From assembly GCA_027020105.1 (NCBI GenBank), contig JALUVW010000077.1:1-36542 (forward strand): a stretch of 36,542 nucleotides of DNA. Reading direction: 5' to 3'. How positions within the stretch are numbered: the stretch's first letter is position 1; every line of letters begins with the position of its first letter. Below, piece by piece: positions 1-34,504 of this stretch. The notes beneath the pieces were generated by a model that saw nothing but the letters and a program-made list of their open reading frames with translations, searched no databases and had not been told where the DNA came from. Made by a program: the position numbers and the translations under genes. The DNA is from Candidatus Falkowbacteria bacterium. Lineage in GTDB: Bacteria > Patescibacteriota > Patescibacteriia > Patescibacteriales > SZUA-104.

Positions 1-3000
1 GTATCGTGCAGTTTTCCACGCAATTTCCGGAGGCTCCGCAAGCATCGCCCAAATTCGCGGTTGACGGGCATCTGCCGCTGCCGTCACTGCAAACAAAATA
101 ATCTCCCCACGGCTCCCACAATCCATTAGTGGTAACCGGCGGCCAAGGGTTCTCGCAAATAAACACCCACGCGTTGGCTTTGCCTGTATATTTCTCTTCT
201 CCGTCTTCGGCGCTGCCTGAAACATCCGCCGTAGCCGATATTACCGCCTTGTTGTCGGTAATGCCCTGTTGAGCCTCGTATAATTGTTCGTAATTATCCG
301 CCGAAAACGGACTATCCGGGTCAAGATCCACGACCGCGTCATTGTTTGAGTTCCAAAGCCAATCCCATTCGTAAACTCCGGCAACCTCGGACAAGCTTTG
401 TCCGTCGGCGGAAACCGCCCAAGCGGCAAACACCTTGTCTCTGTCTTTTATCGTGTCAAAGCTGTCATCTCCCGAATTGGCGTCATTCTCCTTTATGTCA
501 TCCTTTGTGGTTTTAAACAAATATGAATCGGGCGTAATGTTCACGTGGTCTATTTTGCAAATTCCGCTGTTCGGCGACTGTTCATCTATGGTGGTAAACG
601 ACCAAACGTATCCATAATATTCTTTTCCGTTAAAGGTTCTGTCAATTAAATCCACCGTCCCGCCCTCGCTAACAGTGAGGTTCGTGCCGTTAATATCGCG
701 CCAATCATCCGCCATGCCGATTCCTCTATAATTTAAAACCCCCTCGTTATTATCGTCATCCAAGTTGTTGTCGCCTTTGATAATCACATAATACGCGGTT
801 TTGGCGTCCAATAAATTTTTGGGAGAAAAAGTCAAAGTGGTGTTGCCGTCGGAATTCTGAACGCTGCTTACCGTTCCGGAAATGGCGCAGAAATTGTCCG
901 ACAAAGCTCTTGCGCCGGGAAATATCGGAGACAATATTTTCGCTATAATTCTTTTAATTCCCATCCACGCTTTATCGGCCACTCCCTTGTTGTTAACGGT
1001 TAAATATTCGGTGCCCGGCGGACATAGCCGCTCTCCGTAATTGCCCACCATAATCACATTGCCGTTAAAACTTGATACGTCCATTTTCTGGTTAAAATCA
1101 ACGGTAACCAAAGAGTTTCGGCAAACATTCGCGGCTCCGTTGTCCGGAGAAACGGTTTCAATTTTCGGGCCGGCGGGGCAATAAGTTTCGCCGGCGTCTC
1201 CTTCGCAGCCCACGTCGCAGCATACGTTATCGTCGCATAAATACTCCTCCGGAGCGCAATTCGCGCATAAACTGGCGTCGGCGTCCAAGCACCCCCCTGA
1301 TGCCGTTGAGCAGCAAACCGTTCCGCATTCCTCTTCTTCCGGGCCGCAAACGGTCGGGCAAAAAGTGTTGCCGGGAGGGCCTTCGCAAGCGGTCGGACAA
1401 CACGAAGAGTCGTCGCACAATTCATTGGGAGGAAGGCAGTCCGAGATCTTGTCTCGGCACACGCCGGCCGGATAATCGGCGTCATTCAATTCGCAATATT
1501 TTCCGCTTGTGCCTTCGCAGTTGCACGCCGCGTCGCTCAAAGCTTGGTCCGGCACCCCTCCCACTTCAATCCTGCATCCGGAACATTCGCCGAAACCCGA
1601 TCCGTCATCCGTGGTATCGCTGCCGCATGTCCCCGCGCAAACCAAGCCGGTGCAGCAATCGCGCGCGTCCTGGCCTATTTCACAACAACATTCGCAAGAA
1701 GCTTCGTCGGTCATCTCGCATCTTTCGGACAATGTGTTGCATACCGATCCGGCCAGACAAATGTCCTGATCCACTCCGCAAACCCCCTCCCCGTCGCCGT
1801 CGTTATCGTCAAAACAAACAAAGCCGCTGTCGCAAAGACTGCAGGTATCGGCGGTAACGGAATCAACGCACTTATCGCCGGAAGCCCTTATCCATCCGTC
1901 CGGACACGAAGCGCCGGTATTGATATGCCAAACATTATAAGTATTCAAGCCGTCATTGTATTCGGAACAATATTTAACAACGGTTTTTCCAAAAATATCT
2001 TGAGCGGTTGAGTTCAGGCTGCAACCCCCCTGCGTATTGTCAACGCATTTGTTTAAATTGAGATTATAAGCGCAGGAAGGAGCGGCGCACGCGCCCACGC
2101 CGTCGCAATCAGCGTCCGAACATCCGCCCATATCCACGGTTTCTCCCCCGGGGTAAGGCGAACATCGGCCGGGAGAGTTGGGGCAAAATTCAGTATCTTG
2201 GCATTGGTTTAAATTATAGCCGGAGCATGTGCTCGGCGCCTGACAGGTGCATGTGCCTGGATCGCAGATCAATCCCTGTCCGCAGCTGCCGTCGTCTTCG
2301 CATAAAGAAGTGGAATCATTCAAGTCGCAGCTATCGCCGACATTGCCTCCCGCGTCCGTGCTGAAATCCCACTCGTAAACCGAACTGGAAATATCCACAT
2401 AGCAATCGTCCGTCGTCGCTTCGCATCTTCCCTCCTTGTAGGTTCCGGGCGGACAGCATATTTGCGCTCCGCAGGCGTCATCAGAATTGTCTTGCTCGGT
2501 GCACAAGCCCACCGTAAAATTGATTCCGTTTCCCTCATCACCGCTTTGCGCGACTCTTACCGGACCGCTGACCGCGTTATTGTGAACGGTCGTGTCTATT
2601 CTTTGCGCGTCGCCATCGGGGCCCCAATAAGTTATCGCCGTTCCGCTTTGGTCGTTATTCAAATGAAACCTGACCAAACCGGTGGCTTGCTCCCCGAAAT
2701 ATTCTCCCCATAAAGATATGTCGCTGTTGTTAAGCCCCACCGTGGGCTGAATTTTGCATAAACTCGGTTTAAGGGACAAGCTTTCATCGTATTTAAAAGT
2801 ATTGTCAACGGTTGCCGTGGGAATAATTCCGCTTGAATCAATCGGCCCATCCCATCCTTGAACATCTATGACTATGTAATAATCGGTCAAATTAACCAAC
2901 CCCGGCGGCGCCTTGACTATAATTTGATTATCAGACCACAGGCTGTCGCCGCAAATATCCGGAAAGTCATAACTCGCCTCCACGCCGTCAACGGCGTCGC

Positions 3001-5272
3001 CAAGATTATCGTCAAAATAAACACGGTGAGTCGTTCCTATTTGATCCTTGGTGGCATTGCCGAATCCGCTGCCGTAAATAGTCACGTATTGGCCCTGACT
3101 TCCTTTAATCGGGCTAAAAGAAGTGATTTGCGGGCCGGTTTTCGGTTCCGGCTTCTTCGTGAACCGCAAAAAATTACTGTTCACGTCTATATTGTTTTGT
3201 TTAATCGCCGTAAAGGCGGTGGTTTTTCCCGTTTGCATATTCGGCACATCGGCCGTTCCCTCCGTATCGCCGTTAAATACCGAGTTTAAAGCGTTGATAT
3301 TGTCAACGGCGCTGCCAAATTTCGCCGTGGCGCCGTTTAAGCCTATGCCGTAATAAGTGACGGTATCGTTCATTGCGCCGGCGTCCGGGTCCAACAGGCA
3401 AATCCCCGGGCGTTCAATGCCGTTAACAACAAAATCAAAATCCGGTCCCCGTCCGTCCGCGCTCCGCGTGCTGTCTGAAAATCCGTTATCGGCCGTAACC
3501 GTAATCGTTGTTCCCGGTCCGAGACTTAAACCGTCGGGAACGACAACGACTATTTGGTTGTCGCTCCAGCTACCGGAACAATTCTCGTTTACGGTATCCG
3601 CCAAACTGGCGGTAAACTCATTTACGCCATCGTTAAACACCACCGAACCGCTTCCTTGAATATCGTTAAAATATCGCCCGCCAATAGTCACTAAATTGCC
3701 GCTCGCTCCGTTGGGAGTGCCGGTGTCGCAAGTGGTTCCGCAGTCGCTGTCGTCTCGGCACGGCACGTTATTGTCGTCGTCGCAAAATCCGCCCGAAGGT
3801 TCAACCCAATCAATAATCGGAGCGTTTTGGCAAAGGCAGCAACTTGACACGTCCGCGCCGTATCCGCTCGCGGAACAAGCGTCAAGATCGGAGCCGGCGG
3901 AAGAACAAAATCCGGAAGCGCACAGATCGTCGCTGCAGCTTGTCGCCGGCATATTTTCCGCGTCAATGGCGCACGCCGATCCTTCACAGGCCCCGCATTC
4001 ACCTCCGCAGTCAACGCCCTCTTCTCCGTCGGCCGTGTCTTGGACCCCGTTACAGCAATGCGCCGCCTTAACGGTAATCGTTTTGTTGTCGCCCGCGCTG
4101 CGGCTGTCAATATCATAAGCGGTGGCGGTTATCGTTACCGCGTCTCCCGGAGCGTAACCGCTCGCGTCCCATAAAGTATTGGCGCTAAACGGCGAGTCGC
4201 CGTCGGAATTGACGACGGTGTCAATGCTCGCGCCGTCAGCCGAAAACTCTATGCTGTCCACGCCGCTATCATCGGCGCCGTTCGCCAGTAATTCATTGTC
4301 GGGAACGGCGCATATTTGCCCGAGGCCGAGATTTACCGTGGGGTCTTCGCAATCAATCAAATCTCCCACATTAAACGTGATGGAGCAATCCGTTCCCGAG
4401 CCGGGGCAAGACAGCTGAATGTCGCCCACGCTTAAAATGCCGGCCGGACCGTCAACCGCCGTGACCGTTACTTGCTCTCCGGCGTTGAAACAATTGGTTG
4501 CTCCGCACAAATTGCTTCCGCAATCTCCGTCCGGCGTAAATATGATTCGTTTTCCGTCAACTTCCCTGGTCCCGGGAATAGGATCCCCGTCCCCGTTTGT
4601 TACGGTAAAATTCGTGTCATCAATAAAATTGGTATCGCCGACATACAAATTAAAAGAATACCTGATTTTTATGTTTCTGATCACGTTGACATCGCCGTCG
4701 TTGGGGGAGGTGGAGCTAACGTTAAATTCCGGAGGAAAATCGCAAGAATCGGCGCACCCGAAAGAACAACACACTTCGGTCGCGTCGCAAGTGTAGCTGC
4801 AATCGGTCCATGATTCGTTTACGCAGGTTTGCGTTCCCAGATTGGCGCAGCCGCAAGTCTTGACCGCGCCATTCTCGCATAACCCGCCGGTAGCGGTCAA
4901 TAATTTATTCAGGACAAATGTGGTGGCGCCGAAAGAAAGCAAAATTATCAATAATCCGATTATGGCGCCGGACAACACTTTTCTGGCTTTGTCGATTTTT
5001 TCCATATTGCCGGCGGCGGACATCCAAAGCCAGCCGGCGTATATCGTCAGTCCCAAAGCGATAATACCCAAAAAGCCCAAGGCCACTCTGATAATATTGG
5101 CCGCCAATATCCGCGGATCTTCGCTTCCCAGACCTATGGTATTGCCGATTTCATTCTGCGTCCCGCCCCAAAGCAGATTATCGGCGCTTTGCGCCAAAGC
5201 GAAATTAACCGCGGCGGACATGGCTGTTAACACGAAAAATATGATTATTAAATTTTTTGTTTTTTTCAACAT
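1..5272 (-). CDS. Giant cysteine-rich cell-surface protein, partial (C-terminus lies beyond the left edge). Signal peptide plus two-TM TrbC/VirB2-like pilin-type hairpin, then SbsA/Big_5-like Ig domains, a disintegrin-like Cys motif, three IPT/TIG-like domains, a ~440-aa very Cys-rich region and a further Ig-like domain.
   Basis: It is absent from the ORF track only because it has no stop in the window. Hand translation of the minus strand from ATG 5272 (MLKKTKNLIIIFFVLTAMSAAVNFALAQSADNLLWGGTQNEIGNTIGLGSEDPRILAANIIRVALGFLGIIALGLTIYAGWLWMSAAGNMEKIDKARKVLSGAIIGLLIILLSFG...) stays open for 1,757 codons down to position 2. Recognisable pieces: CCNGVQDTADGEEGVDCGGECGAC (~4050-3980); IPT-like GTPNGASGNLVTIGGRYFND...SWSDNQIVVVVPDGL (~3720-3500); SPIKGSQGQYVTIYGSGFG...LWSDNQIIVKAPPG (~3110-2900); a third IPT-like unit at ~2760-2480; 62 Cys in ~440 aa between ~2460 and ~1140; SbsA_Ig-like ETVSPDNGAANVCRNSLVTVDFNQKMDVSSF (~1175-1060). 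The short ORFs listed at 241-5312 are other-frame or antisense shadows. Confidence 0.85.
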   Translation of the reverse strand, partial: MLKKTKNLIIIFFVLTAMSAAVNFALAQSADNLLWGGTQNEIGNTIGLGSEDPRILAANIIRVALGFLGIIALGLTIYAGWLWMSAAGNMEKIDKARKVLSGAIIGLLIILLSFGATTFVLNKLLTATGGLCENGAVKTCGCANLGTQTCVNESWTDCSYTCDATEVCCSFGCADSCDFPPEFNVSSTSPNDGDVNVIRNIKIRYSFNLYVGDTNFIDDTNFTVTNGDGDPIPGTREVDGKRIIFTPDGDCGSNLCGATNCFNAGEQVTVTAVDGPAGILSVGDIQLSCPGSGTDCSITFNVGDLIDCEDPTVNLGLGQICAVPDNELLANGADDSGVDSIEFSADGASIDTVVNSDGDSPFSANTLWDASGYAPGDAVTITATAYDIDSRSAGDNKTITVKAAHCCNGVQDTADGEEGVDCGGECGACEGSACAIDAENMPATSCSDDLCASGFCSSAGSDLDACSASGYGADVSSCCLCQNAPIIDWVEPSGGFCDDDNNVPCRDDSDCGTTCDTGTPNGASGNLVTIGGRYFNDIQGSGSVVFNDGVNEFTASLADTVNENCSGSWSDNQIVVVVPDGLSLGPGTTITVTADNGFSDSTRSADGRGPDFDFVVNGIERPGICLLDPDAGAMNDTVTYYGIGLNGATAKFGSAVDNINALNSVFNGDTEGTADVPNMQTGKTTAFTAIKQNNIDVNSNFLRFTKKPEPKTGPQITSFSPIKGSQGQYVTIYGSGFGNATKDQIGTTHRVYFDDNLGDAVDGVEASYDFPDICGDSLWSDNQIIVKAPPGLVNLTDYYIVIDVQGWDGPIDSSGIIPTATVDNTFKYDESLSLKPSLCKIQPTVGLNNSDISLWGEYFGEQATGLVRFHLNNDQSGTAITYWGPDGDAQRIDTTVHNNAVSGPVRVAQSGDEGNGINFTVGLCTEQDNSDDACGAQICCPPGTYKEGRCEATTDDCYVDISSSVYEWDFSTDAGGNVGDSCDLNDSTSLCEDDGSCGQGLICDPGTCTCQAPSTCSGYNLNQCQDTEFCPNSPGRCSPYPGGETVDMGGCSDADCDGVGACAAPSCAYNLNLNKCVDNTQGGCSLNSTAQDIFGKTVVKYCSEYNDGLNTYNVWHINTGASCPDGWIRASGDKCVDSVTADTCSLCDSGFVCFDDNDGDGEGVCGVDQDICLAGSVCNTLSERCEMTDEASCECCCEIGQDARDCCTGLVCAGTCGSDTTDDGSGFGECSGCRIEVGGVPDQALSDAACNCEGTSGKYCELNDADYPAGVCRDKISDCLPPNELCDDSSCCPTACEGPPGNTFCPTVCGPEEEECGTVCCSTASGGCLDADASLCANCAPEEYLCDDNVCCDVGCEGDAGETYCPAGPKIETVSPDNGAANVCRNSLVTVDFNQKMDVSSFNGNVIMVGNYGERLCPPGTEYLTVNNKGVADKAWMGIKRIIAKILSPIFPGARALSDNFCAISGTVSSVQNSDGNTTLTFSPKNLLDAKTAYYVIIKGDNNLDDDNNEGVLNYRGIGMADDWRDINGTNLTVSEGGTVDLIDRTFNGKEYYGYVWSFTTIDEQSPNSGICKIDHVNITPDSYLFKTTKDDIKENDANSGDDSFDTIKDRDKVFAAWAVSADGQSLSEVAGVYEWDWLWNSNNDAVVDLDPDSPFSADNYEQLYEAQQGITDNKAVISATADVSGSAEDGEEKYTGKANAWVFICENPWPPVTTNGLWEPWGDYFVCSDGSGRCPSTANLGDACGASGNCVENCTI

Positions 5273-5280
5273 TTTAATTA

Positions 5281-5397
5281 AATCAAAATTTAAAAATCAA
5301 AAATCAAAATGACAATTTAAAGTATAAAATTTATACAGTTTAATAATTTTAAATTCCGCATTGTCATTTTCCATTTTGCTTTTTGGTTTTTACATTT
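5281..5397. repeat. AT-rich inverted-repeat element E1 (heptamer-built arms) between the two giant genes
   Basis: Left arm taaaaatcaaaaatcaaaatgacaat (5291-5316) pairs with right arm attgtcattttccattttgctttttggttttta (5360-5393). The ~43-nt loop is AT-rich. Confidence 0.8.
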
Positions 5398-8016
5398 TTA
5401 TGGGCATTCGCTCCCGGCCGTCAACACCTCTCCGCAACAAGAAGGAAAAGCTTCCGTGGCCGCGCAATTCGGTCCGGCGCTCGGCTTAAAACAGTTTTGG
5501 TATATGTCTTTAACGCCGGAACCGACTTGCGAACGATAACTGGTCGCGTCGGAAAGCATTGAATGGTTAATCCGCGCCACCGTATAATCAGGGTATCCGT
5601 CCAAAGGGGGCGTATCAACGTTTTCTTTGGTAATCCAATAGCCGATCGGTTTGTTGTTGAAATTTCTGATATTTATCAATTTATGCTCAACCTTATTGTC
5701 GCCGTTGGACACCGTCTTGCTGCCGGTTTTCAAACTGTCCGACATCATCACCTTGCTGAAAGAAACCAATACCGGCTCGTTAAGAGAAACCCCCGAATAA
5801 TTATGTTCCGGTGAAATAAGATTGATTTTCGGCGGAGCCAAATCTATCGCGTCGCTAATATAAAACGACCACCGAAAATTATCCCCTCCCGGCCCTCCGG
5901 TATTTTCATTATAAAACGACACGGGAGCGTCGGCTTCTCCGTTTCTGTTGCCGTCCAATGAGTTGGAGGCGGTATCGGCAATTCCTTCCAACGGATAATT
6001 CGCGAGAGGATAATTTACGCCGTCTGAGTTTTGGCAAGCGTAGGAGGTTCCGACACTCGCGCAATTATTGTACGGCGTCTTATAAGCGCAATCGCTGTCG
6101 CCGGCGCATACGTCCAGCCGAGCGGCGACCATATCCACTTTTAAATTGGCGTTCTCCGGCAGGCAGTAAATCTTTTCTCCGCACCCGTTTACTCCGCATT
6201 GGTTGTCGGAGACAAACTCAACCGTTTTATAATTGTTGGAAACCGTAAAGCTGCCGCGAACGCAGACATCCGAACCGCAGTCAAAAAATTCCGAACCCGT
6301 ACAATCGCCGCTTACGCATTTTACGGCTATATAATCCTGCAAACTCTCGGCGTCGCCCGAAACCGTCAAAGGATTTACGGCTTCATTAAAGTTGATTTGT
6401 ATAACGGAGTTTCTCGGCTGATCCTTCTTGTCGTTTACGATGGTCGTCACTTCCCTGTCAGTTCCGCCGGACATGGGCGTTATGTCAATGGCGTCCGTAT
6501 TGCTGGTCGCCAACACAATATTGTTTCCGGAGCTGCCGGCGACTTTGGCGGTCACGAAAATTGAGCTTCCGGAGGTGACAAAACTGCCAAGAAGAGGATT
6601 TTTAACCAAAACGCCGGTAATATTGGACGCGGTCGCGGCCGTGGTTCCGCCAATGGCGATGTCCTCTCCGAAAACATAGGTTATATCGCCCGCGGTCAAT
6701 GTGTCCGCTTTTTGCTCGGCGGTGATGTCAACATTCCAAGAATTGCCGGCGCCGTAAGCGCCGTCGCCGGCAACGGTTAAGGTAAAATAACCCGGGAAAG
6801 TTACGGACGATCCGTTAAACGCGGCGGAACCGAGCAACACGCTTCCTTTGCTTAATTGCGCGGTTGAACCGTCCGATAAAATCGTAACCGTTAAAATTCC
6901 GCTCTCTTGATTGCCGCTGTCGGCAACCGCCTCGGCGTCGTTCCAATCGGCTCCCGACGGATTTTTGCCAACGCTCGCGACAACGGCGGGAACATAAACG
7001 TTCGGCTGGCCAACCACTCTTATGACGCCGCTTGCCGCCACGGCGTCGGTTATCGCGCCAACTTCGTCTTGCTCGTTGTCGGGCACGGGGAAAACGCCGC
7101 CTTCTTTAACTTGCGGCGGAGTCAGGTCCACTTTATTGCTGACTTTAAACTGCCACTCCATATAGTCGGCCGAACAAGTGGAGAAAATGCCGTTATTCGC
7201 GCCGCTCTTATCTCTTTTTTCTATTTCATTGGTTAAATGAACCGTATACCAAATATGCTCCGACGGCGAACCCAAATATTCAGTCGGAATAAAGACAAAA
7301 GTTTTATTGTCATTGGTGGCCACATTCACTTCAAGAACGTTTCCGTCGCAAGGGGGGCCGCAAGCGTCGCCGGCCGCGGTCTTGTAAATTCTGACATTTT
7401 CCGGAATTATATATTCTCCGGCATCGCAAACGCCGTTATTGTTGCCGCCCGCGTCATCGCAAAGAGTTGTCGGGTCAACCTCTTCCTTAAAAGTAATGAT
7501 AATGGCGGTGTTTCTCGGGACTTCTTCCTGGTTCGGCTCCGGATAAACGCTCTCAACCGTGCAACTCCCCAAGGCGCCGAGCCCCGTGCCCGCGTCGGGC
7601 GGACCGGCTCCCGGCCCCGGACCGCCGACTCTGGTCGCTCCCAAAAACTTGCTTAAAATAAACGTAACGATGCCGAACGACAACAAAATAATGGCCAGCC
7701 CGATAACCGCGTTTCTTAAAACTTGCTTGGCTTTTGTTATTCGCGATTCTTCGCCCCCCGAAGTCATCCAAAGAAATCCGGCATACATTATCAGGCCGAC
7801 AGCGATAATACCCAAGAAACCGATAAACACTCTGATTATTTTGGCCGCCAATATTCGCGGATCTTCGCTTCCCAACCCTATGGTGTTGCCGACTTCGTTC
7901 TGCGTCCCGCCCCAGAGCAAATTGTCCGCGCCTTGCGCCAAAGCGAAATTAACCGCGACGGACATGGCTGTCAACACGAAAAATATGACAATTAAATTTT
8001 TTGTTTTTTTTAGCAT
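5398..8016 (-). CDS. Large surface protein (872 aa), paralog of the giant gene. It has the same signal peptide and pilin-type two-TM hairpin, a Gly/Pro linker, several SbsA/Big_5-like Ig domains and Cys-rich segments.
   Basis: ORF-track protein. The N-terminus MLKKTKNLIVIFFVLTAMSVAVNFALAQ...IIRVFIGFLGIIAVGLIMYAGFLWMTSGGEESRITKAKQVLRNAVIGLAIILLSFGIVTFIL is ~75-80% identical to the first ~125 aa of the 1-5272 protein. Big_5-like segments: VESVYPEPNQEEVPRNTAIIITFKEEVDPTTL, DLTPPQV, DQPRNSVIQINFNEAVNPLTV, DLAPPKINLISPEHNYSGVSLNEPVLVSFSKVMMSDSL. Confidence 0.85.
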   Translation of the reverse strand: MLKKTKNLIVIFFVLTAMSVAVNFALAQGADNLLWGGTQNEVGNTIGLGSEDPRILAAKIIRVFIGFLGIIAVGLIMYAGFLWMTSGGEESRITKAKQVLRNAVIGLAIILLSFGIVTFILSKFLGATRVGGPGPGAGPPDAGTGLGALGSCTVESVYPEPNQEEVPRNTAIIITFKEEVDPTTLCDDAGGNNNGVCDAGEYIIPENVRIYKTAAGDACGPPCDGNVLEVNVATNDNKTFVFIPTEYLGSPSEHIWYTVHLTNEIEKRDKSGANNGIFSTCSADYMEWQFKVSNKVDLTPPQVKEGGVFPVPDNEQDEVGAITDAVAASGVIRVVGQPNVYVPAVVASVGKNPSGADWNDAEAVADSGNQESGILTVTILSDGSTAQLSKGSVLLGSAAFNGSSVTFPGYFTLTVAGDGAYGAGNSWNVDITAEQKADTLTAGDITYVFGEDIAIGGTTAATASNITGVLVKNPLLGSFVTSGSSIFVTAKVAGSSGNNIVLATSNTDAIDITPMSGGTDREVTTIVNDKKDQPRNSVIQINFNEAVNPLTVSGDAESLQDYIAVKCVSGDCTGSEFFDCGSDVCVRGSFTVSNNYKTVEFVSDNQCGVNGCGEKIYCLPENANLKVDMVAARLDVCAGDSDCAYKTPYNNCASVGTSYACQNSDGVNYPLANYPLEGIADTASNSLDGNRNGEADAPVSFYNENTGGPGGDNFRWSFYISDAIDLAPPKINLISPEHNYSGVSLNEPVLVSFSKVMMSDSLKTGSKTVSNGDNKVEHKLINIRNFNNKPIGYWITKENVDTPPLDGYPDYTVARINHSMLSDATSYRSQVGSGVKDIYQNCFKPSAGPNCAATEAFPSCCGEVLTAGSECP

Positions 8017-8035
8017 TGAATTTTTAGCATTAAAA

Positions 8036-8232
8036 TTAAAATGTAAATAGCAAAAATCAAAATGACAGTGTAAAATTTAAAATTAATTTTAGAAAATATT
8101 ACATAATCGGATTGCCGGCGCTTCTGATAAGCTTATAGATAAGCTATATTAAACGCGCTAAGGACCGGTAAAATAATTTTGCGTTTTTAATTGTCATTTT
8201 CCATTTTGATATTTAATTTTTAAATTTACATT
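8036..8232. repeat. AT-rich inverted-repeat element E2 (~200 bp, MITE-like), homologous to E6 in the opposite orientation
   Basis: Arms are caaaaatcaaaatgacagtg (8051-8070) and aattgtcattttccattttgatatt (8189-8213). The first ~60 nt and last ~45 nt align at ~90-95% with the reverse complement of 14995-15196. Confidence 0.8.
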
Positions 8233-8259
8233 GACTAATCCACAGTTTTGCTATTTAAT
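8231..8259 (+). promoter_or_regulatory. Candidate sigma70-type promoter for rel
   Basis: TTGACT (8231-8236), 17-nt spacer, TTTAAT (8254-8259), about 75 nt upstream of ATG 8336. Confidence 0.3.
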
Positions 8260-8335
8260 GATATTATACCATAAATAAAACCAAGCCATCAAATTCGGCG
8301 ATACGGAGTTTGCGAGTTAAGCGGCCATAGATTCT

Positions 8336-10090: not shown

Positions 10091-10780
10091 ATGAAAAAAC
10101 ATTGGTATAAAAAATGGTGGGGAATAATATTGATTACGGTTCTAACGATATTTTTGATAGTTTTAACCGCTTCCGGTTTTTATGTTTACCGCGCCGCCAA
10201 ACGCATAAACGACAACCGATTAAGCCCGCCGGAAAAAATATCAATAGATTATAATAAAATAGACAAACAAACGCGCGCGAAAATTGAAGGCGCGGACAAC
10301 TACTGGATAGGCGCGGCAAACCCCGAGATAACCATTGTTGAATTCGGCGATTTCGCCTGCCACCATACCAAGAAATCGTTTCCGAAGATACGGGAAATCG
10401 GGACAAAGTACAAAAATAATGTTAAAATAATATTCAGGGATATGCCCTTGCAGGAAAATTCCTTGGAATTGTCGCTGGCCGGCCGCTGCGCCGGAGAACA
10501 AGGGCTGTTTTGGCCGATGTATGACAAGCTGTTCCAAAACCAAGGCGTAAGCGGCGCGGACGAACTCATTGAAACGGCAAATCAAATCGGCGCGGACACG
10601 GCCAGATTCGCCGACTGCTTAAAGAGCCAAAAATACATTAAACAAATTCAAAAAAATTTTTCAGACGGAGAAGATCTCGGAGTAAGAGGAACGCCGACAT
10701 GGTTTGTCAACGGCGTTAAAATAGAAGGAGATGTCCCGCTTAGTGTTTGGGAAAATATTATAAACGAATTATTAAAATGA
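10091..10780 (+). CDS. Membrane-anchored DsbA-family thioredoxin-fold protein with a monothiol CHHT active site
   Basis: N-terminal TM helix WWGIILITVLTIFLIVLTASGFYVY. Thioredoxin_4-like core ITIVEFGDFACHHTKKSFP...AGRCAGEQGLFWPMYDKLFQNQ...GVRGTPTWFVNG. The DNA reads ttc gcc tgc cac cat acc, so the usual CxxC is CxxT. Confidence 0.8.
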   Translation: MKKHWYKKWWGIILITVLTIFLIVLTASGFYVYRAAKRINDNRLSPPEKISIDYNKIDKQTRAKIEGADNYWIGAANPEITIVEFGDFACHHTKKSFPKIREIGTKYKNNVKIIFRDMPLQENSLELSLAGRCAGEQGLFWPMYDKLFQNQGVSGADELIETANQIGADTARFADCLKSQKYIKQIQKNFSDGEDLGVRGTPTWFVNGVKIEGDVPLSVWENIINELLK

Positions 10781-11851: not shown

Positions 11852-11966
11852 ATTAAAATGTAAAAATCAAAAATCAAAATGACAATGCAAAATTTAAAAT
11901 TATTAAACTTTAAAAATTTTACACTTTAAATTGTCATTTTGATTTTTGATATTTAATTTTTAAATT
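11852..11966. repeat. AT-rich inverted-repeat element E4 between porD and porA
   Basis: Left arm aaaatgtaaaaatcaaaaatcaaaatgacaatg pairs with right arm aaattgtcattttgatttttgatatttaattttta. Confidence 0.8.
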
Positions 11967-11971
11967 ATTTT

Positions 11972-13159
11972 ATGAATAACAAAAATCAACAAATCCTTGA
12001 GGGTTCCAGGGCGATAGCTTTAACCATTAACAACATTGGGCCGGCTGTCATTTCCGCCTACCCGATCACCCCGCAAACCCATATCGTGGAGGACTTGGCC
12101 AAATTCAAGGCGGACGGAGACGCCGATTACGAATACGCGCGGGCGGAAAGCGAATTCGCGGCGGCCTCTATTGTGGAGGGAGCGAGCGCCGCCGGCGCGC
12201 GCGTCTATACCGCGACCAGTTCGCAAGGACTGCTTTTAATGGCGGAGGTATTGTTTAATATCGCCGGTATGCGCTTGCCGATCGTGGTGACCTGCGCCAA
12301 CCGCGGCGTTTCCGCGCCGATTACGATTTGGAACGACCAGCAAGACGCGATGACCATCCGCGACGCCGGCTGGATACAAATGTTCGCCGAAAACCATCAA
12401 GAAGCGGTTGACCAGCATATTATGGCCTACAAAATCGCCGAGCAAACGAATCTGCCGGTTATGGTCAATATTGACGGCTTTGTTTTAACGCATTCTTACG
12501 AACCGGTTATTATTCCCACCAGAGCGCAAATCAAAAAATACCTGCCGGATTATAAACCTAAAAAGGGACAATATTTGGACCCGGCCAATCCGGTTACCCT
12601 CGGCGCCTTCGCCCGACCCCAGCATTATATGGAAATCCGCCAAGACCTGCATAATGACCTGATGTCCAGTCTCAATTTAATTAACAAAGAGTATATTAAA
12701 TATAGAAAAACAATAAAAACAATGAAGTCCGACATCGGGTGCCCGATGTCGGACTTCGGAGCGGAAAATAACGGCTTAGTTGAATACTACGGCCCCAAAA
12801 AGCCTAAAATCATCTTAGTGGCGATGGGCTCGGTTATCGGAACGATAAAGGAAGTGGCGGATAAAACAAAAGGCGTCGGCGCGCTAAAAATAAAGACTTA
12901 CCGCCCGTTCCCCGAAGACGCGATTTTCAATATTTTAAAAAAGGCCAAATACGTGGCCGTTTTGGACAAATCCATATCGCTGGGGCATATCGGGCCGTTG
13001 GCTTCCGACATTAAATCGGCAATGCAGGGGAAAATCAAGGCTAAAATCCAAAGCTTTATAGTCGGATTGGGAGGACGGGATATTACGAAGGAAATGATTG
13101 GGGGAATTGTTAGGGAAGTTAAGAAAGGGGATGGTGGGGTGAAATTTATCGGGAAATAG
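11972..13159 (+). CDS. porA: PFOR alpha subunit
   Basis: 395 aa. AVISAYPITPQTHIVEDLA...YTATSSQGLLLMAEVLFNIAGMRLPIVV is typical of porA/korA alpha subunits. Confidence 0.9.
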   Translation: MNNKNQQILEGSRAIALTINNIGPAVISAYPITPQTHIVEDLAKFKADGDADYEYARAESEFAAASIVEGASAAGARVYTATSSQGLLLMAEVLFNIAGMRLPIVVTCANRGVSAPITIWNDQQDAMTIRDAGWIQMFAENHQEAVDQHIMAYKIAEQTNLPVMVNIDGFVLTHSYEPVIIPTRAQIKKYLPDYKPKKGQYLDPANPVTLGAFARPQHYMEIRQDLHNDLMSSLNLINKEYIKYRKTIKTMKSDIGCPMSDFGAENNGLVEYYGPKKPKIILVAMGSVIGTIKEVADKTKGVGALKIKTYRPFPEDAIFNILKKAKYVAVLDKSISLGHIGPLASDIKSAMQGKIKAKIQSFIVGLGGRDITKEMIGGIVREVKKGDGGVKFIGK

Positions 13160-13328: not shown

Positions 13329-14069
13329 ATGAAAAAAATCCCTAAAATTATAGTATCAACATTCTTAACAATCTTCATCCTCCAAATGATAGGTCTAATA
13401 GTCTTATTGTCCGTTCCCGCGCAAGCGGCTGATGTGAAATTTAAACCTCAAATTGAAGTTCCCGGCTTGGAAAAAGGGCTTAAGGGCAGTAAAGAAGACG
13501 GGTATATAATTGAATCAACCACGATTGGCGAATACATTAAGGCCATCTATAAATACGCCATCGGCGTTGTCGGCATTTTGGCCGCGGTTGTGTTGATGAT
13601 CGGCGGAATCGTCTGGCTCACGGCCGGCGGAAACCAGACCAGAATCGGCGAAGCCAAGGCGTGGATAGGCGCGTCCCTGACCGGCCTGATTATCGCTTTA
13701 ACTTCGTATATGATTTTATGGACGGTTAATCCGGCGCTGGTGCGATTTAAGCCGATAAAAGTGGCGACGGTAACGGAACTAAAAAATGGATGCTGTGAAC
13801 TAAATAACGGAAAAGCGATGAATTCAACAGACACGGACTGCCCGGAAGACGTGGGAGTCTTCAACGACGGTAAAGTGGCAAGCGCCGACGGAAGCGCTTG
13901 CGTTAACAAAGAAACGGTGGTGGACTTAAAAGGATCCGGGCCCGGATGCTGCATCAAGCCCGGACTTTTCGGATATAATTGCGACTATGTCTCTTCTCAA
14001 GATGATTGCGACGATGGATATGAATTCCTTCTTGGCGTAAAATGTGAAGAAATTGATAAATGCCAATAA
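13329..14069 (+). CDS. Small TrbC/VirB2-like (CPR T4SS-pilin-type) protein with a Cys-rich C-terminal domain
   Basis: Signal/TM segment KIIVSTFLTIFILQMIGLIVLLSVPAQA, then IGEYIKAIYKYAIGVVGILAAVVLMIGGIVWLTAGGNQTRIGEAKAWIGASLTGLIIALTSYMILWTVNPALV (TM, GG loop, EAK, TM, INP-LV-like end). A ~100-aa tail with 12 Cys follows. Confidence 0.8.
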   Translation: MKKIPKIIVSTFLTIFILQMIGLIVLLSVPAQAADVKFKPQIEVPGLEKGLKGSKEDGYIIESTTIGEYIKAIYKYAIGVVGILAAVVLMIGGIVWLTAGGNQTRIGEAKAWIGASLTGLIIALTSYMILWTVNPALVRFKPIKVATVTELKNGCCELNNGKAMNSTDTDCPEDVGVFNDGKVASADGSACVNKETVVDLKGSGPGCCIKPGLFGYNCDYVSSQDDCDDGYEFLLGVKCEEIDKCQ

Positions 14070-14994: not shown

Positions 14995-15196
14995 GAAAAA
15001 TCAAAAATCAAAATGGAAAATGACAATTAAAAATGCAAAATTATTTTATCGGTTTAAAATATTTTAATATATCTTACCGTATGAGCCGCATTATTTAAGT
15101 AAAACAGGTAATCCAATTGCAATATTCTCTAAAATTAATTTTAAAATTTTACATTGTTATTTTGATTTTTGATTTTTACATTTTGATTTTTATTTT
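14995..15196. repeat. AT-rich inverted-repeat element E6 (~200 bp), inverted homolog of E2, inserted between the DUF4258 and DUF2283 genes
   Basis: Arms are aaaaatcaaaaatcaaaatggaaaatgacaatt and acattgttattttgatttttgatttttacattttgattttt. The ends align with the reverse complement of E2. Confidence 0.8.
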
Positions 15197-15559: not shown

Positions 15560-16546
15560 ATGCCTATGAAGCCAACAATGTCTAAAGTAAAAACAAAACA
15601 ACTATTATCCCCCGGCCATACCGCTTGCGCCGGATGCGGACAAATGATTGCCGCGAGAACCGTTGCCCAAGCGCTGGGACCGAACACTATTATCGCCAAC
15701 GCCACCGGCTGCCTTGAAGTGACGACAACCGCCTATCCTATGAGCTCGTGGGGAATGCCGTGGATACACTCCTTGTTTGAAAACGCGTCCGCCGTCGCCT
15801 CGGGAATAAAAGCGGCGTTGAAATATAAAGAGACTAAGTCTCCAATTGGAGACTTAGTCTCCACGCCTAAAGTTGTCGCCCAAGGCGGAGACGGAGGAAC
15901 TTTTGACATCGGCTTCGGCTTGATTTCCGGAATGTGGGAGCGAGGCGATGATATTCTCTATATCTGTTACGACACCGAAGCGTATTCCAATACCGGCATA
16001 CAAGCCTCCGGCGCCACCCCCTGGGCGGCGTCCACCACCACGACTCCGTCCGGTAAATGTATGAGTAAAACGAAGTCCGGTTTCGGCGGAGCGGATGAAG
16101 ATTGCCCGATTGACGCGATCGGCTCGCATCAAAGAAAAAAGGATATGATCGCCATCGCTTTGGCGCACAGATTGCGTTACGTGGCGCAAAGCACCGCCGG
16201 CTTCCCGGATGATATTGCCGCCAAGGTTAAAAAAGCCTTAACCTTTAAGGGTCCGAAATATATCCAAATTATGGCTCCCTGCGTGCCGGGATGGAAAATA
16301 AGTTCCGCGCAGGCGGTGCGGATAGGAAAATTGGCCGCCCAAACCGGACTTTACCCGCTCCTGGAGTATGAAAACGGACAACTGACGAATGTTCTAAAAG
16401 TCCCGAAACCGCGTCCGAAAGTGGATGAATACCTTAAACTGCAAGGCCGATTCGCGCATCTCTTTAAGAATAAAAGCGGAAAAAAGCAAATTGCCTATAT
16501 ACAAAAATTAGCTGACGGGAATATTGAGAAGTATGGTTTAAAATAG
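15560..16546 (+). CDS. porB: PFOR beta subunit (TPP-binding), carrying an in-frame 51-bp palindromic element
   Basis: Motifs GHTACAGCG, GGDGGTFDIGF and YDTEAYSNTG. Residues KYKETKSPIGDLVSTPK are encoded by 15821-15871. Confidence 0.9.
   Translation: MPMKPTMSKVKTKQLLSPGHTACAGCGQMIAARTVAQALGPNTIIANATGCLEVTTTAYPMSSWGMPWIHSLFENASAVASGIKAALKYKETKSPIGDLVSTPKVVAQGGDGGTFDIGFGLISGMWERGDDILYICYDTEAYSNTGIQASGATPWAASTTTTPSGKCMSKTKSGFGGADEDCPIDAIGSHQRKKDMIAIALAHRLRYVAQSTAGFPDDIAAKVKKALTFKGPKYIQIMAPCVPGWKISSAQAVRIGKLAAQTGLYPLLEYENGQLTNVLKVPKPRPKVDEYLKLQGRFAHLFKNKSGKKQIAYIQKLADGNIEKYGLK
15821..15871. repeat. 51-bp palindromic element, in-frame copy inside porB
   Basis: aaatataaagagactaagtctccaattggagacttagtctccacgcctaaa is the exact reverse complement of 30831-30881. 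The core GAGACTAAGTCTCCAATTGGAGACTTAGTCTC is a perfect 32-nt palindrome. The element is 17 codons and starts in frame (15821-15560 = 261). Confidence 0.95.
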
Positions 16547-26483: not shown

Positions 26484-26697
26484 GTTTAAAAATCAAAAAT
26501 CAAAATGACAGTTTAAAACGCAAAGCTTAAAAAAACTTTATAGAGCTTAATATATTTTACAGAATAAGTCGTGTTGTCGGGTGAAATCGGCAGAAACTTC
26601 CCGCTAAAGCGGGAAAGGTTGTATCGCGGTGAAAATTTTTAAATTTTTAAACTTTACATTGTCATTTTAATTTTTGATTTTTACATTTTGATTTTTT
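26484..26697. repeat. AT-rich inverted-repeat element E9 with a ~130-nt loop
   Basis: Arms are gtttaaaaatcaaaaatcaaaatgacagtt and actttacattgtcattttaatttttgatttttacattttgatttttt. The loop contains the hairpin cttcccgctaaagcgggaag. Confidence 0.8.
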
Positions 26698-27718
26698 AAA
26701 ACGTTCTCCTGACTCTCCTCACCATCTTATAAACATTATACCACCCCTCGTCAAAAACCAAATCAAAGGTCCCCGGATAATTTGCCGTTCTGCCGCCGAA
26801 TCCCTTCTTAAATCTTGTTACCCCCGGCCATCTCTCTTCGTCTATGCCGTAGAGGTCGTAATATTTATACCCTGATTTTTTCGCCAATTTCATCACGTGC
26901 CATTGAAGTAAATACGAAGCCATCGCGTTGCGATACTCCGAGCCGGACGCGCCATGCGTATAGGTCGCGGTATCGCCGAAAAACGAAACAATGCCGGCGG
27001 CAATCGGCCTTTTTTTGTATTCGGCGATAAATAGTTTTATCGCCAAAGCGGGCCCCGCGGATTCGCGAACTCGCGAATCCTCGTCCCCTCCGGCCAGCAT
27101 CGCCTTATAATAATCCCTGCCGTGAGTGCGGAAATTGTCCCTCTCGCTTGTTTCTCCAAGCAGCCGCCAAAAATCTTCAAAACGATCAACTCCGGCTTCA
27201 ACAACCTTCACGCCCTTTTTTTCCGCCAATCTAATATTGTATCTGGTTTTTTGGCGCATATTCTTCAAAATATCCTCTTCCGGCTTGGCCAAATTCAATA
27301 TCAATGTCTTGCTTGGCTGAACATCAAGGGTCTTGTTTAGCTTGTAGCTTGTAGCTTGTAGCTTGTAGGAAGCGGGCGGGTCAAACCTTAAAAACATAAT
27401 ACCCTCGTTTTCCGCGATATTCTTAATTTCATTAAACAAGCTTTCTAAAATTAGTTGATAATTGACGGTTGATAATTGATAATTGAATACCGGCCCCCGC
27501 GGGCAATAAAAATAATATTTGCCTATCGGCAACTGCTTTTTGATGATAGTGGCGGCGGCGACCAGTTTACCGTCATCCAAAACACCCAGACGCCAAACAT
27601 CCCCGCTCACCTTTTTGTGAAACTCGCCCCATTCCCAAGACTGCAAAAACTGGCTGTGCTTTTGCGCCGCGACAAAATTATTATACTGTTTTTTATCCGT
27701 AATGTTGATTACTCGCAT
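26696..27718 (-). CDS. FemAB-family peptidoglycan interpeptide-bridge aminoacyltransferase (FemX/MurM-like), with two in-frame heptamer arrays
   Basis: FLQSWEWGEFHKK, YFYCPRGPVF, RYNIRLAEKKGV, YYDLYGI and RFKKGFGG are typical of FemAB proteins. Low-complexity NYQLSTVNYQLI and ASYKLQATSYKL are encoded by tandem 7-mers. Confidence 0.8.
   Translation of the reverse strand: MRVINITDKKQYNNFVAAQKHSQFLQSWEWGEFHKKVSGDVWRLGVLDDGKLVAAATIIKKQLPIGKYYFYCPRGPVFNYQLSTVNYQLILESLFNEIKNIAENEGIMFLRFDPPASYKLQATSYKLNKTLDVQPSKTLILNLAKPEEDILKNMRQKTRYNIRLAEKKGVKVVEAGVDRFEDFWRLLGETSERDNFRTHGRDYYKAMLAGGDEDSRVRESAGPALAIKLFIAEYKKRPIAAGIVSFFGDTATYTHGASGSEYRNAMASYLLQWHVMKLAKKSGYKYYDLYGIDEERWPGVTRFKKGFGGRTANYPGTFDLVFDEGWYNVYKMVRRVRRTF
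27339..27368. repeat. Tandem heptamer array (agcttgt x4) inside the FemAB-family gene
   Basis: agcttgt agcttgt agcttgt agcttgt agg encodes ...ASYKLQATSYKL.... A related caagctacaagcta lies in the intergenic spacer at 31588-31601. Confidence 0.9.
27455..27489. repeat. Tandem heptamer array (ttgataa-type x5) inside the FemAB-family gene
   Basis: ttgataa ttgacgg ttgataa ttgataa ttgaata encodes ...FNYQLSTVNYQLI.... Confidence 0.9.
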
Positions 27719-27747: not shown

Positions 27748-27860
27748 AGGGGGGGATAAACACCCCCTTGATAAAGGAACCTGCCTTCCGTAGAGACGAG
27801 GCACTGCCTCGTCTCTACGGCGAAGGAAGGGTTGGCCCCGCCTTTCGCGAAAGGCGGGGT
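27748..27860. repeat. GC-rich palindrome cluster G5 upstream of the FemAB-family gene
   Basis: Three palindromes: gggggataaacaccccc; a 33-nt palindrome CCGTAGAGACGAGGCAcTGCCTCGTCTCTACGG (27788-27820); and a perfect 24-nt palindrome CCCCGCCTTTCGCGAAAGGCGGGG (27836-27859). Confidence 0.85.
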
Positions 27861-30747: not shown

Positions 30748-30830
30748 AAAGAGATTATCGCCTAATGGGGCTGTTGCCGAATGCCGTTGCGAGTAAAATT
30801 TTTGAATCCCCAATCAAGTTTTTAGGCGTG

Positions 30831-33325: not shown

Positions 33326-33462
33326 ACGCGTTTAAAATTCGTGATTCGCGATTAGAAATTAAAATCGCGTTTTATTTCAAAATTTCTAATTTTAAATTAT
33401 GAATTGCCGATAATTTAATTATATCAAACTGTCCGAAATATACAAACAAGGCCGTTTTACCC

Positions 33463-33495
33463 AAAACTGCCGCCAAATAACGTGTTTGGCGGCAG
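33463..33495 (-). terminator. Rho-independent terminator after the membrane-protein gene
   Basis: The minus strand reads CTGCCGCCAAA-cacgtta-TTTGGCGGCAG-TTTT (11-bp stem, 33467-33495). Confidence 0.65.
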
Positions 33496-33523
33496 CGGCG
33501 CGAATTCTAATTGTCGGGGGCGG

Positions 33524-34504
33524 CTATCCGGAAATAGCTCCTTTCACGTTATTCGCCATTCTGATTATTTTACTGGTTCCGCCCTTGCCGATTAACCGAA
33601 GGAACAAAGCCGTCCAAGACGATATTTGAAAAACGGAAAGCGCGGCTCCGCTCAACATAATGATTCCCAAGAGCAAAAGAAGGGCCAAGGCGACCATAAG
33701 CCAGAAACCGGCGATTACCGACACCTGATAAACGACCATAACCAAGAACATAAATGGTATGGTTAACGTCAAGACAACCAAGACCACCGCCAAGCCGACA
33801 AGAAGATTGATAAAAAACAGAATAACGGCCATTTCCAAGCTTATCAGCCAATTATCAATAAATAATCGCCATCCGTTTTTTACGGACTCAACAAAACCGT
33901 TTTTCTTGATTACCGTATAGGCCACGGCGTACTTGATAATAAAAGACAAGGACAGGGCGACAATAATGGAAACAATGAAAGCGATCGTAAATATAGGCCA
34001 AGGGACGCTCGCGACGGCCAATACTCCGACCATAATAAAAATCAAATAAACCAAAAATTTAACAATTAAATTCAAGCCGAGCACCGGCCAAAATTTTTCC
34101 GTTCCCACGGCTATTCCGGTCTTGAAATCGGCCTTTTTGTTGGTCAAGTGTTTGGCGGAATTATCCACCAATGCGGCCTGTGAAACAACGGACAGCCAAA
34201 TTAAAAAAGCGATAATGATTAAAATGGCCAAAAACACCATTGATAAAACCAATAAAGACAACGGGTCGTTTCTCATAATTTCTCCAATATTGACGAGCGT
34301 TTGGCCGCTGAAAACGCCTGTTTCGGCGATTTTGTTAATCCCGGGAAAAATTTGTTGTTCGGAATCGCCGGAAAATCCCCTGAACAACACATTGTATTCG
34401 CCGCCCGCCCCGACAAGAGCGGCAAAAAGGCCGAAAAACCATAAGTATTTATGGCGCCAAGTCGCCTTCCACGCTTGGCTTAAGATTGTTTTATACAAAG
34501 ACAT
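33524..34504 (-). CDS. Polytopic integral membrane protein of unknown function
   Basis: About 6-7 hydrophobic helices (for example LWFFGLFAALVGAGG, LLVLSMVFLAILIIIAFLIWLSVV, LVYLIFIMVGVLAVASV, LVGLAVVLVVLTLTIPFMFLVMVV). Probable start is MSLYKTIL at 34504. Confidence 0.6.
   Translation of the reverse strand: MSLYKTILSQAWKATWRHKYLWFFGLFAALVGAGGEYNVLFRGFSGDSEQQIFPGINKIAETGVFSGQTLVNIGEIMRNDPLSLLVLSMVFLAILIIIAFLIWLSVVSQAALVDNSAKHLTNKKADFKTGIAVGTEKFWPVLGLNLIVKFLVYLIFIMVGVLAVASVPWPIFTIAFIVSIIVALSLSFIIKYAVAYTVIKKNGFVESVKNGWRLFIDNWLISLEMAVILFFINLLVGLAVVLVVLTLTIPFMFLVMVVYQVSVIAGFWLMVALALLLLLGIIMLSGAALSVFQISSWTALFLRLIGKGGTSKIIRMANNVKGAISG

Follow-up and report, generated by a model that had tools for sequence, protein, structure and literature searches.

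A giant Ig-like, cysteine-rich protein of Patescibacteria with a VirB2/TrbC-like pilin hairpin at its N-terminus

The DNA considered here (the window) is a stretch of 36,542 nucleotides from a Candidatus Falkowbacteria bacterium (GenBank assembly GCA_027020105.1, contig JALUVW010000077.1, positions 1 to 36,542), whose left end is occupied by a very long minus-strand gene that we call the giant, or G. Its predicted product opens with a signal peptide and a two-helix hairpin resembling the VirB2/TrbC-type pilins of type IV secretion systems (T4SS), and then continues into an ectodomain of Ig-like and cysteine-rich modules. The giant is a real gene of a Candidatus Falkowbacteria-like Patescibacterium, and the fusion is a widespread two-gene design, not unique to the window. 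On balance, we think it somewhat probable that the protein is a surface attachment protein held at the cell, and probably assembled, via its pilin-derived module. The parts of the giant are as follows (aa, amino acids; AF2, AlphaFold2; ENA, European Nucleotide Archive).

1..5272, minus strand: giant (G) gene, codons 1-1757 of 2,004 (translation, ENA contig, protein search)
5192..5272, minus strand: signal peptide, aa 1-27 (MLKKTKN, hydrophobic core, FALA then QS; hydropathy, A-x-A/Q site kept across the family)
5111..5191, minus strand: acidic segment, aa 28-54, predicted extracellular, ending in a conserved GLG..DPR motif
4898..5110, minus strand: VirB2/TrbC-type hairpin, aa 55-125 (AF2, Pfam, hhalign, conservation)
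5021-5110, minus strand: helix 1 of the hairpin, aa 55-84
4967-5020, minus strand: basic loop, aa 85-102
4898-4966, minus strand: helix 2, aa 103-125
4739..4879, minus strand: membrane-proximal Cys-rich linker, aa 132-178, 10 Cys
4523..4726, minus strand: Big_5 (bacterial Ig-like) domain, aa 183-250 (Pfam)
3713..4060, minus strand: Cys-rich module, aa 405-520, including CCNGVQDTADGEEGVDCGGECGAC (Cys count)
2513..3712, minus strand: IPT/TIG-type Ig-like region, aa 521-920, where conservation within the ectodomain is highest
1205..2524, minus strand: large Cys-rich block, aa 917-1356, 63 Cys, 14.3% (Cys count)
983..1171, minus strand: second Big_5 domain, aa 1368-1430 (47.9 bits)
2..535, minus strand: beta-sandwich (Ig-like), aa ~1580-1757, then a conserved C-x-N-P-W-P...Y-Y-C-R-D region, running past the edge (AF2)
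Left of the window: two fn3 domains, aa ~1830-2000 (Pfam)

From the ATG at 5272, the minus strand of positions 1-5272 can be translated for 1,757 codons to the left edge without meeting a stop, as a first-pass annotation made from the letters alone had stated. By our own estimate, which assumes about 4% stops per random codon, a run of this length would occur by chance with a probability of ~e^-70. That annotation was also right that the gene is absent from the mechanical list of open reading frames supplied with the DNA, because the frame runs off the edge of the window. We could recover the complete gene, with no stop at the junction, from the ENA contig ERZ27262676 k141_417824 (L001), which was located by exact look-up of the neighbouring 872-aa protein and carries the frame through to its stop codon. 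The full product has 2,004 aa and is 100% identical to a protein found by database search (P0016). Thus the window holds the first 88% of the gene, and the final 247 codons, including the two fn3 domains, lie beyond its left edge.

That such a frame might be an artefact, either a chimera made during assembly or a small pilin gene run together with the next gene through a sequencing error, is almost certainly wrong, its sole support being the local GC excess raised in the first-pass annotation. The figures given there (about 55%, against about 30-40% in the neighbours) were not borne out: we measured 0.52-0.54 in bases 1001-5000 and 0.48 in bases 1-1000, compared with 0.33-0.51 in the rest of the window. 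It is at codon position 2 that GC is raised (0.48 vs 0.30-0.47 in neighbouring genes), whereas GC at the third codon position (GC3) is 0.57, within the 0.48-0.60 of the neighbours, so that the excess reflects amino-acid composition (Gly, Ala, Cys, Thr, Ser) and not foreign DNA or a chimera. Bases 1-8334 of L001 differ by one mismatch from the reverse complement of window positions 1-8334. L001 having been assembled independently, the junction between hairpin and ectodomain is covered by a second assembly. In addition, a 79%-identical orthologue found in the protein search has exactly the same length, 2,004 aa, and the same join recurs in 91 long homologues and 58 cassettes (see below). Assembly chimera and foreign DNA were thus ruled out by the second assembly, the neighbour-like GC3 and the equal-length orthologues.

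The N-terminal layout proposed in the first-pass annotation, i.e., a cleavable signal followed by two transmembrane segments separated by a loop, was confirmed both by hydropathy and by structure prediction. Hydropathy peaked at about residues 55-85 and 97-127, and the intervening loop contains four Lys or Arg against two Asp or Glu. An AF2 model built from an alignment of 39 relatives showed helices at 53-84 and 90-127, with a predicted local distance difference test score (pLDDT) of 85-93 in these regions, joined by the loop SAAGNMEKIDKARKVLSG. The signal peptide is probably cleaved after FALA (Ala27). Guided by the positive-inside rule and by the topology known for VirB2/TraA, we would place the N-terminus outside, the loop in the cytoplasm and the C-terminus, with the whole ectodomain, outside; hydropathy and loop charge are consistent with this arrangement, which the first-pass annotation had also favoured.

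When a profile of the hairpin family was compared by hhalign with a VirB2/TrbC profile (seven annotated proteins from MPF_T plasmids, including pTi VirB2), the two matched over 69 columns with 94.4% probability and an E-value of 9.1e-8. In register were the A-x-A|Q site, a DP motif before helix 1, helix 1 itself, a G-x-x-WM motif and helix 2. The signal-peptide site of the family aligned with the PAAAQS segment of VirB2, which contains the VirB2 cleavage site Ala47|Gln48. All 39 aligned relatives matched the Pfam family PF18895 (T4SS_pilin) at E-values up to 0.01 (best 3.1e-12), and 13 of them also matched TrbC (PF04956; best 2.6e-6); most long homologues carry precomputed PF18895 matches as well. 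Taken by itself, the module is closest to free-standing pilins 123-212 aa long (40-57% identity), which are encoded in arrays of 8-9 genes, one of them near dnaA. Taken together, the profile evidence supports homology of the module to VirB2-type pilins, as well as the initial description of the giant as a VirB2/TrbC-like pilin hairpin fused to a Cys-rich, adhesin-like ectodomain.

Immediately upstream of the giant, on the same strand, lies a second gene of the same type, the medium partner or M.

5273..5397, minus strand: intergenic, with a promoter-like site for the giant (GGAAAATGACAAT at 5360-5372)
5398..8016, minus strand: medium (M) partner, 872 aa; signal peptide and hairpin as in the giant, then Big_5 domains and an ectodomain of unrelated type

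In the window, M and G share 76% amino-acid identity over aa 1-128. At the nucleotide level (4882-5330 vs 7627-8074), the first ~250 nt of the two genes together with ~50 nt upstream are ~93% identical by our count, after which the similarity falls, and the last ~50 bases before the ATG of the giant resemble those before the ATG of its paralog. This pattern suggests that the 5' end underwent gene conversion or was duplicated recently.

The pair is far from unique. In at least 58 species-level Patescibacteria genomes, an M gene (570-1,055 aa) is followed in tandem, on the same strand, by a G gene (1,540 to >3,400 aa), and the family was seen in Falkow-, Uhr-, Magasanik-, Kuenen- and Kerfeldbacteria and in the wider Parcubacteria group. 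A full-length search returned 91 clusters of 969-3,054 aa, with the module N-terminal in 91/91; their database names are Ig-like, IPT/TIG, fn3 or LamG domain-containing protein, and never pilin. The survey for pilin-module fusions in genomes of the Candidate Phyla Radiation (CPR), proposed in the first-pass annotation, has thereby been carried out. As for the suspicion that the architecture was unusual and uncharacterized, the second half stood, as we found no paper on the fusion in the searchable literature, whereas the first did not, the design being common.

Searches with the module gave a similar picture. A scan of the species genomes of GTDB, using an alignment of nine closer sequences, yielded 524 matching stretches, the best of them in Candidatus Falkowbacteria SZUA-104 (90% identity over the module). 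In the 62 best loci whose 3' end is complete, the tail after the hairpin exceeded 300 aa in 54 cases and 1,200 aa in 37, and only seven loci were free pilins. In a library of 1.84 billion proteins, the module profile matched 82,142 cluster representatives; the 138 top newly retrieved matches included 75 with at least two tandem hairpins, 47 with one N-terminal hairpin and a tail of more than 300 aa, and nine short proteins. The tandem forms (P0107-P0244, e.g., P0110, P0108 and P0113) merit a description of their own. These polypilins string 2 to 17 hairpins along one polypeptide, separated by linkers of ~10-30 aa, with a signal peptide on the first unit only, and we came across no description of them. 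We also observed that some cassette-bearing GTDB records are titled uncultured Gammaproteobacteria (many, e.g., L013, L018 and L023), Bacillota (one) or Candidatus Nanoarchaeia (one), with L043 and L061 also listed; given their Patescibacteria-type gene content, these titles are probably mislabelled.

Within the giant, the hairpin is the most conserved part. In a BLAST-based comparison with 89 homologues, mean identity was 0.53-0.56 over aa 41-120, compared with 0.14-0.47 along the ectodomain. M and G form distinct orthologous lineages: when the genome of origin was excluded, the nearest module was another M for 53 of 58 M proteins and another G for 51 of 58 G proteins. Even so, the M and G modules of one genome resemble each other more (identity 0.59) than M and G modules across genomes (0.48), and among five parts of the module the largest same-genome excess was found in the segment before helix 1 (0.57 vs 0.36). 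Gene conversion would account for this likeness, and so would co-evolution for a partner common to both. The natural multi-hairpin proteins, for their part, suggest that hairpins pack side by side. Because of its top conservation, the same-genome likeness of M and G and the tandem multi-hairpin proteins, we regard the hairpin as more than a passive anchor.

The genomic surroundings of the pair are also conserved. In the four flanks that we read, namely those of the window and of three long contigs (L003-L005), it adjoins a divergent relA/spoT gene; in L003-L005 it lies upstream of TSP3-repeat proteins, ybeY, ftsA and ftsZ. No recognizable T4SS gene was found within 10 kb of the cassette in L003-L005, nor in the window. 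Downstream of the giant, L003-L005 encode one to three TSP3_bac-repeat proteins, whereas the genome of the window (L001, 10296-12541) has small paralogous multi-pass membrane proteins and Lys/Glu-rich proteins there instead.

Free VirB2-like pilins encoded in gene arrays are known in Patescibacteria (PMC12102498; PMC12857230). In Southlakia, the one genetically tractable Patescibacterium, T4SS genes and VirB2-like pilin arrays are essential for epibiotic life (PMC10633639), and T4SS_pilin genes are highly expressed in Paceibacterales (PMC10936435). We found the cassette, or part of it, together with a free-pilin array in at least four assemblies: MFGB01, JAZDLN01 and PKTH01 have the full cassette and a nine-gene array, and CAYNBD01 a truncated cassette and a seven-gene array. 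GCA_030583705.1, which we looked up for its T4SS content, is absent from the genomes listed in the supplement of PMC12102498. In the window itself no VirB4 was found. The minus strand at 31604-34534 encodes a PilB-like T2SSE ATPase (409 bits) beside a multi-pass membrane protein of 336 aa that matches DUF7544 weakly; the presence of this ATPase means that the organism also has type IV pilus machinery.

Beyond the hairpin, the ectodomain consists of Ig-like and Cys-rich modules. At the position of the first Cys-rich linker (aa 132-178), relatives have either a Cys-rich or a G/P-rich linker. The SbsA/Big_5-like Ig domains reported in the first-pass annotation were found (Big_5 at 71 bits over three stretches, by Pfam), and a weak Big_7-like match was seen at aa ~330-385. 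The three IPT/TIG domains claimed fared less evenly: a TIG domain at aa 714-806 scored 30 bits, above the cut-off, and one at aa 520-601 scored 19.4 bits, just below the cut-off of 20.9, but the third went undetected. The predicted ~440-aa block with 62 Cys (about 14%) corresponds to the 63 Cys of aa 917-1356. This block matched no Pfam or NCBIfam family and is covered by ~65-80% of the homologues. The whole giant has 116 Cys.

The smaller Cys-rich module had been likened to a disintegrin or Myxococcus repeat, a claim that we dropped. Pfam gave no match on aa 395-520 at E-values up to 1, and the only NCBIfam match was TIGR04201 at aa 503-519, away from the motif in question and weak (E 0.026; 14.7 bits vs 25). 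At CCNGVQDTADGEEGVDCGGECGAC there is accordingly no hidden Markov model (HMM) support for a Myxococcus/disintegrin repeat (PF13948, TIGR04201/TIGR02232).

For the poorly annotated C-terminal part, an AF2 model of aa 1440-1830 was confident only for a beta-sandwich at ~1580-1770 (pLDDT 75-96), with the last ~70 residues and two loops poorly modelled. The best Foldseek matches of the sandwich in the Protein Data Bank (PDB) were phi29 capsid protein chains, antibody-type variable domains and chaperone-usher chaperone-subunit complexes. An enzyme or lectin domain in this region was considered and rejected, as AF2 and Foldseek returned Ig-like folds only. No enzyme or lectin family was detected in the ectodomain by Pfam, NCBIfam or AF2 plus Foldseek of the C-terminal region, and Pfam found no SLH or other wall-binding domain. 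The protein ends in ...ELEVEVLPSC, with no LPXTG motif, transmembrane segment or charged tail at the C-terminus, and no type I secretion system (T1SS) signal domain was detected.

The many cysteines of the ectodomain probably form disulfides outside the cell, and a candidate helper is encoded nearby.

10091..10780, plus strand: membrane-anchored DsbA/MdbA-like thioredoxin-fold protein (Thioredoxin_4 85 bits, DSBA 69 bits)

This protein may assist in forming the disulfides of the ectodomain, although the functional link is presumptive. The MdbA-like family is enriched in CPR bacteria (bioRxiv 10.1101/335083). The gene lies 2 kb from the Cys-rich surface-protein genes, and its product has C-H-H-T (in FGDFACHHTKK) where the catalytic C-x-x-C is expected.

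A possible course of events can be drawn from these features. The giant would be exported by the Sec system and lose its signal peptide after FALA. The hairpin, homologous to VirB2/TrbC, would then insert such that its basic loop faces the cytoplasm and its two ends the exterior, leaving outside the cell a rod of ~1,875 aa made up of Big_5, TIG, a further beta-sandwich and two fn3 domains, with disulfide-rich blocks in between. The hairpin would serve as a specific, pilin-derived membrane assembly module that tethers the ectodomains of M and G and most likely docks them to each other, or to the apparatus handling the free VirB2-like pilins that these genomes encode elsewhere. As for the ectodomain, it is most likely a long attachment or contact fibre directed toward host cells; we favour an adhesin-like role because it holds Ig-like and Cys-rich modules only and no enzyme fold.

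Several observations weigh against this picture. The target alone scores below the PF18895 cut-off of 26.6 bits (16.7 bits for the first 130 aa, 11.7 for the whole protein), even though the module of its 872-aa paralog, 76% identical to that of the target, passes at 31.0 bits. A Foldseek search of the hairpin model against the PDB returned generic helical hairpins, none with an E-value below 0.26, and no pilin among the top 50; a sequence-profile search of the PDB likewise did not retrieve the solved VirB2/TraA pilins. In our view, short helical hairpins are poorly discriminated by Foldseek, and since the structural comparison retrieved no pilins we turned to the profile-profile comparison with real VirB2/TrbC sequences. 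Hence, the N-terminal similarity advanced in the first-pass annotation was upheld by HMM and profile matches at the family level, but not by the target's own PF18895 score nor by Foldseek against solved pilins. Furthermore, no host-binding domain of known specificity was identified in the ectodomain, and the likeness of M and G within a genome could stem from gene conversion alone (the 5' 250 nt being ~93% identical), with no need for functional coupling.

The hairpins might also enter a filament. M and G would then be true minor or tip pilins, extracted and co-polymerized with free VirB2-like pilins, and their ectodomains would decorate or cap the filament as its adhesin, in the role that VirB5 or PrgB have elsewhere, a reading that we consider rather unlikely. 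The module is homologous to VirB2; its nearest relatives are the free pilins of the 8-9-gene arrays; arrays and cassettes occur in the same genomes; the hairpin is very strongly conserved; and the concatenated hairpins suggest side-by-side packing. VirB2-type pilins point both of their termini outward in the F-pilus structure, a topology that permits C-terminal extension. On the other hand, an ectodomain of 200 kDa per subunit is hard to fit into a helical lattice, so that only sparse or tip incorporation is conceivable, and a C-terminal extension rules out the head-to-tail cyclization that VirB2 and TrbC undergo. The cassette adjoins no recognizable T4SS gene, and a 2025 review called a pilus made of these pilins in Patescibacteria only a possibility (PMC12857230). 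A 3,035-genome survey in which Patescibacteria showed no PrgB-like adhesin (PMC12102498) speaks for the reading. A still more far-reaching version, in which the Falkow-, Uhr-, Magasanik- and Kuenenbacteria group has a monoderm VirB2-type filament or lattice whose M and G subunits carry adhesins as C-terminal extensions of 500-3,300 aa, is put forward tentatively and strikes us as doubtful. If it were true, a pilin-borne adhesin system would replace the separate tip adhesins (VirB5, PrgB) of known T4SSs, and the free-pilin arrays and multi-hairpin concatemers would belong to this polymer as additional components.

Two other readings were considered. If M and G were building blocks of an S-layer-like coat, tethered by the hairpins, their role would be structural and not adhesive. 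We judge this distinctly improbable: the elongated multi-Ig build fits fibres better than lattices, the length of the ectodomain varies from ~1,400 to >3,300 aa between species, and the giant lacks SLH or other wall-binding domains, Big_5 being all that it has in common with S-layer proteins. A content of 116 Cys, as in the giant, is moreover atypical of S-layer proteins. A coat would nonetheless agree with the Big_5 score of 71 bits, Big_5 being the SbsA S-layer-type Ig domain, and with the finding that in many species each locus has a single cassette, set among conserved housekeeping genes (relA, ftsA, ftsZ), and that the two partners co-evolve. S-layer proteins have also been predicted in Patescibacteria (bioRxiv 10.1101/2024.05.28.596244), and genes with a T4SS_pilin domain are among the most expressed unknown genes in Paceibacterales (PMC10936435). 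The remaining reading, in which the giant is a polyprotein precursor cut at the ...ATGG end of the module to give a small pilin plus a giant that is either released or anchored separately, is very unlikely in our estimation. The end of the module (L..ATGG) does resemble the T.TGG with which VirB2 proteins terminate. In TrbC-type pilins a signal-peptidase-like enzyme trims the C-terminus, and the multi-hairpin proteins might be precursors too. However, no protease gene is conserved in the cassette (L003-L005), ATGG is only loosely conserved and often replaced by a G/P-rich linker, and the hhalign match stops short of it.

Another protein encoded in the window carries the hairpin with a much shorter extension.

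13329..14069, plus strand: third hairpin protein, 246 aa, T4SS_pilin module (26.8-28.1 bits, over the cut-off) plus a Cys-rich tail of ~100 aa

It is thus a pilin-plus-extension form of intermediate size. The flanking genes (11972-13159 and 15560-16546) were read as subunits of pyruvate:ferredoxin oxidoreductase, an assumption that was confirmed by no search.

Some repeated sequences were noted elsewhere in the window. The promoter-like motif upstream of the giant, GGAAAATGACAAT, had ten matches when near variants were included, compared with 2.5 expected, a number reached in one of 100 shuffles. Sites of this type were seen at 5360-5372, 8190-8202, 11874-11942, 15015-15027 and 26658-26670, upstream of unrelated genes. 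A cassette-specific regulator could be discarded, as the motif also precedes porA, the porB region and murE; containing a -35-like ATGACA, it probably serves as a promoter element of general use. Three copies of a perfect 23-nt palindrome, GAGACGAGGCAGTGCCTCGTCTC, were counted (27793-27815, 29758-29780 and 29803-29825), where chance would give none. One of them lies between genes, upstream of a FemAB-family gene, and the other two are in frame within the open reading frame 29314-30813, where they encode a repeated RDEALPRL; we assume this frame to encode a U32-family peptidase, an assignment that was likewise confirmed by no search. The FemAB-family gene (minus strand) contains direct repeats in its coding sequence at 27338-27365 and 27452-27486 (TAGCTTGTAGCTTG twice, and TAGTTGATAATTGA / TAATTGATAATTGA), which yield the peptides SYKLQATSYKL and NYQLSTVNYQL.

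Irrespective of how the proteins are assembled, a large branch of the phylum has a pilin module permanently joined to giant Ig-type, disulfide-rich ectodomains, in a cassette located away from T4SS genes. M and G are candidate host-contact structures of uncultured episymbionts, for which the 3,035-genome survey recorded no adhesin tied to the T4SS in Patescibacteria (PMC12102498). The family also amounts to a natural experiment on the size of the cargo that a VirB2-type pilin can carry. Being very large surface proteins, M and G should, we expect, be detectable by mass spectrometry and could be tagged for cryo-electron tomography. Given their current names (Ig-like, IPT/TIG, fn3), pilin surveys that assume small proteins will misread these genes.

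The searchable full-text literature, a scope that leaves out most subscription journals, held no description of a pilin hairpin fused to a giant ectodomain. What we regard as new is that a VirB2-type pilin is combined with a surface protein of giant size and Ig type; the proteins themselves are already public under generic names. Giant adhesins of the SiiE/SasG type are held by a C-terminal LPXTG-sortase link, or are secreted by a T1SS and retained in the outer membrane. Like the giant, SiiE, SasG and the 7,651-aa adhesin of Mobiluncus (PMC6272769, PMC4458895, PMC10619420) are long rods of tandem Ig domains, without enzyme domain and with a presumed function in attachment, but the giant differs in having an N-terminal pilin-type hairpin, large Cys-rich blocks (116 Cys) and an end, ...LPSC, devoid of sorting signal.

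The Pam pili of CPR bacteria (bioRxiv 10.64898/2026.03.03.709456) share with the giant a restriction to Patescibacteria, Sec export, the Ig fold and a supposed role in host contact. Their pilins, however, assemble by donor-strand exchange with membrane-anchored chaperones, have no VirB2-type hairpin and occur mainly in Saccharimonadia and Microgenomatia; as both fold and assembly differ, we could discard Pam pili as the same system. A short two-helix module of this kind is also found in a wall-less or monoderm lineage, in the pilin-like conjugal transfer proteins of the Mbov_0395 family (NCBIfam NF045849) from the integrative and conjugative element (ICE) of Mycoplasma. The matches to it were weak (E 1.3e-4 and 8e-6; 21.6 and 25.4 bits, well under the 40-bit cut-off), and those proteins are small and ICE-encoded.

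The closest comparison is with the VirB2/TrbC pilins themselves, which have, like the giant, a signal peptide with an A-x-A|Q site, an acidic segment ending in DP, two helices, a basic loop and the G-x-x-WM motif. The loop of the giant is ~7 residues longer than that of VirB2 (hhalign). VirB2/TrbC pilins have ~70-130 aa and stop right after helix 2, whereas the giant continues for 1,875 aa; in their mature form they weigh ~7-10 kDa and are often cyclized or trimmed at the C-terminus, and cyclization is precluded in the giant by its extension. Finally, VirB2/TrbC pilins are encoded in a T4SS cluster beside virB3/virB4, whereas the gene for the giant lies outside any T4SS operon.

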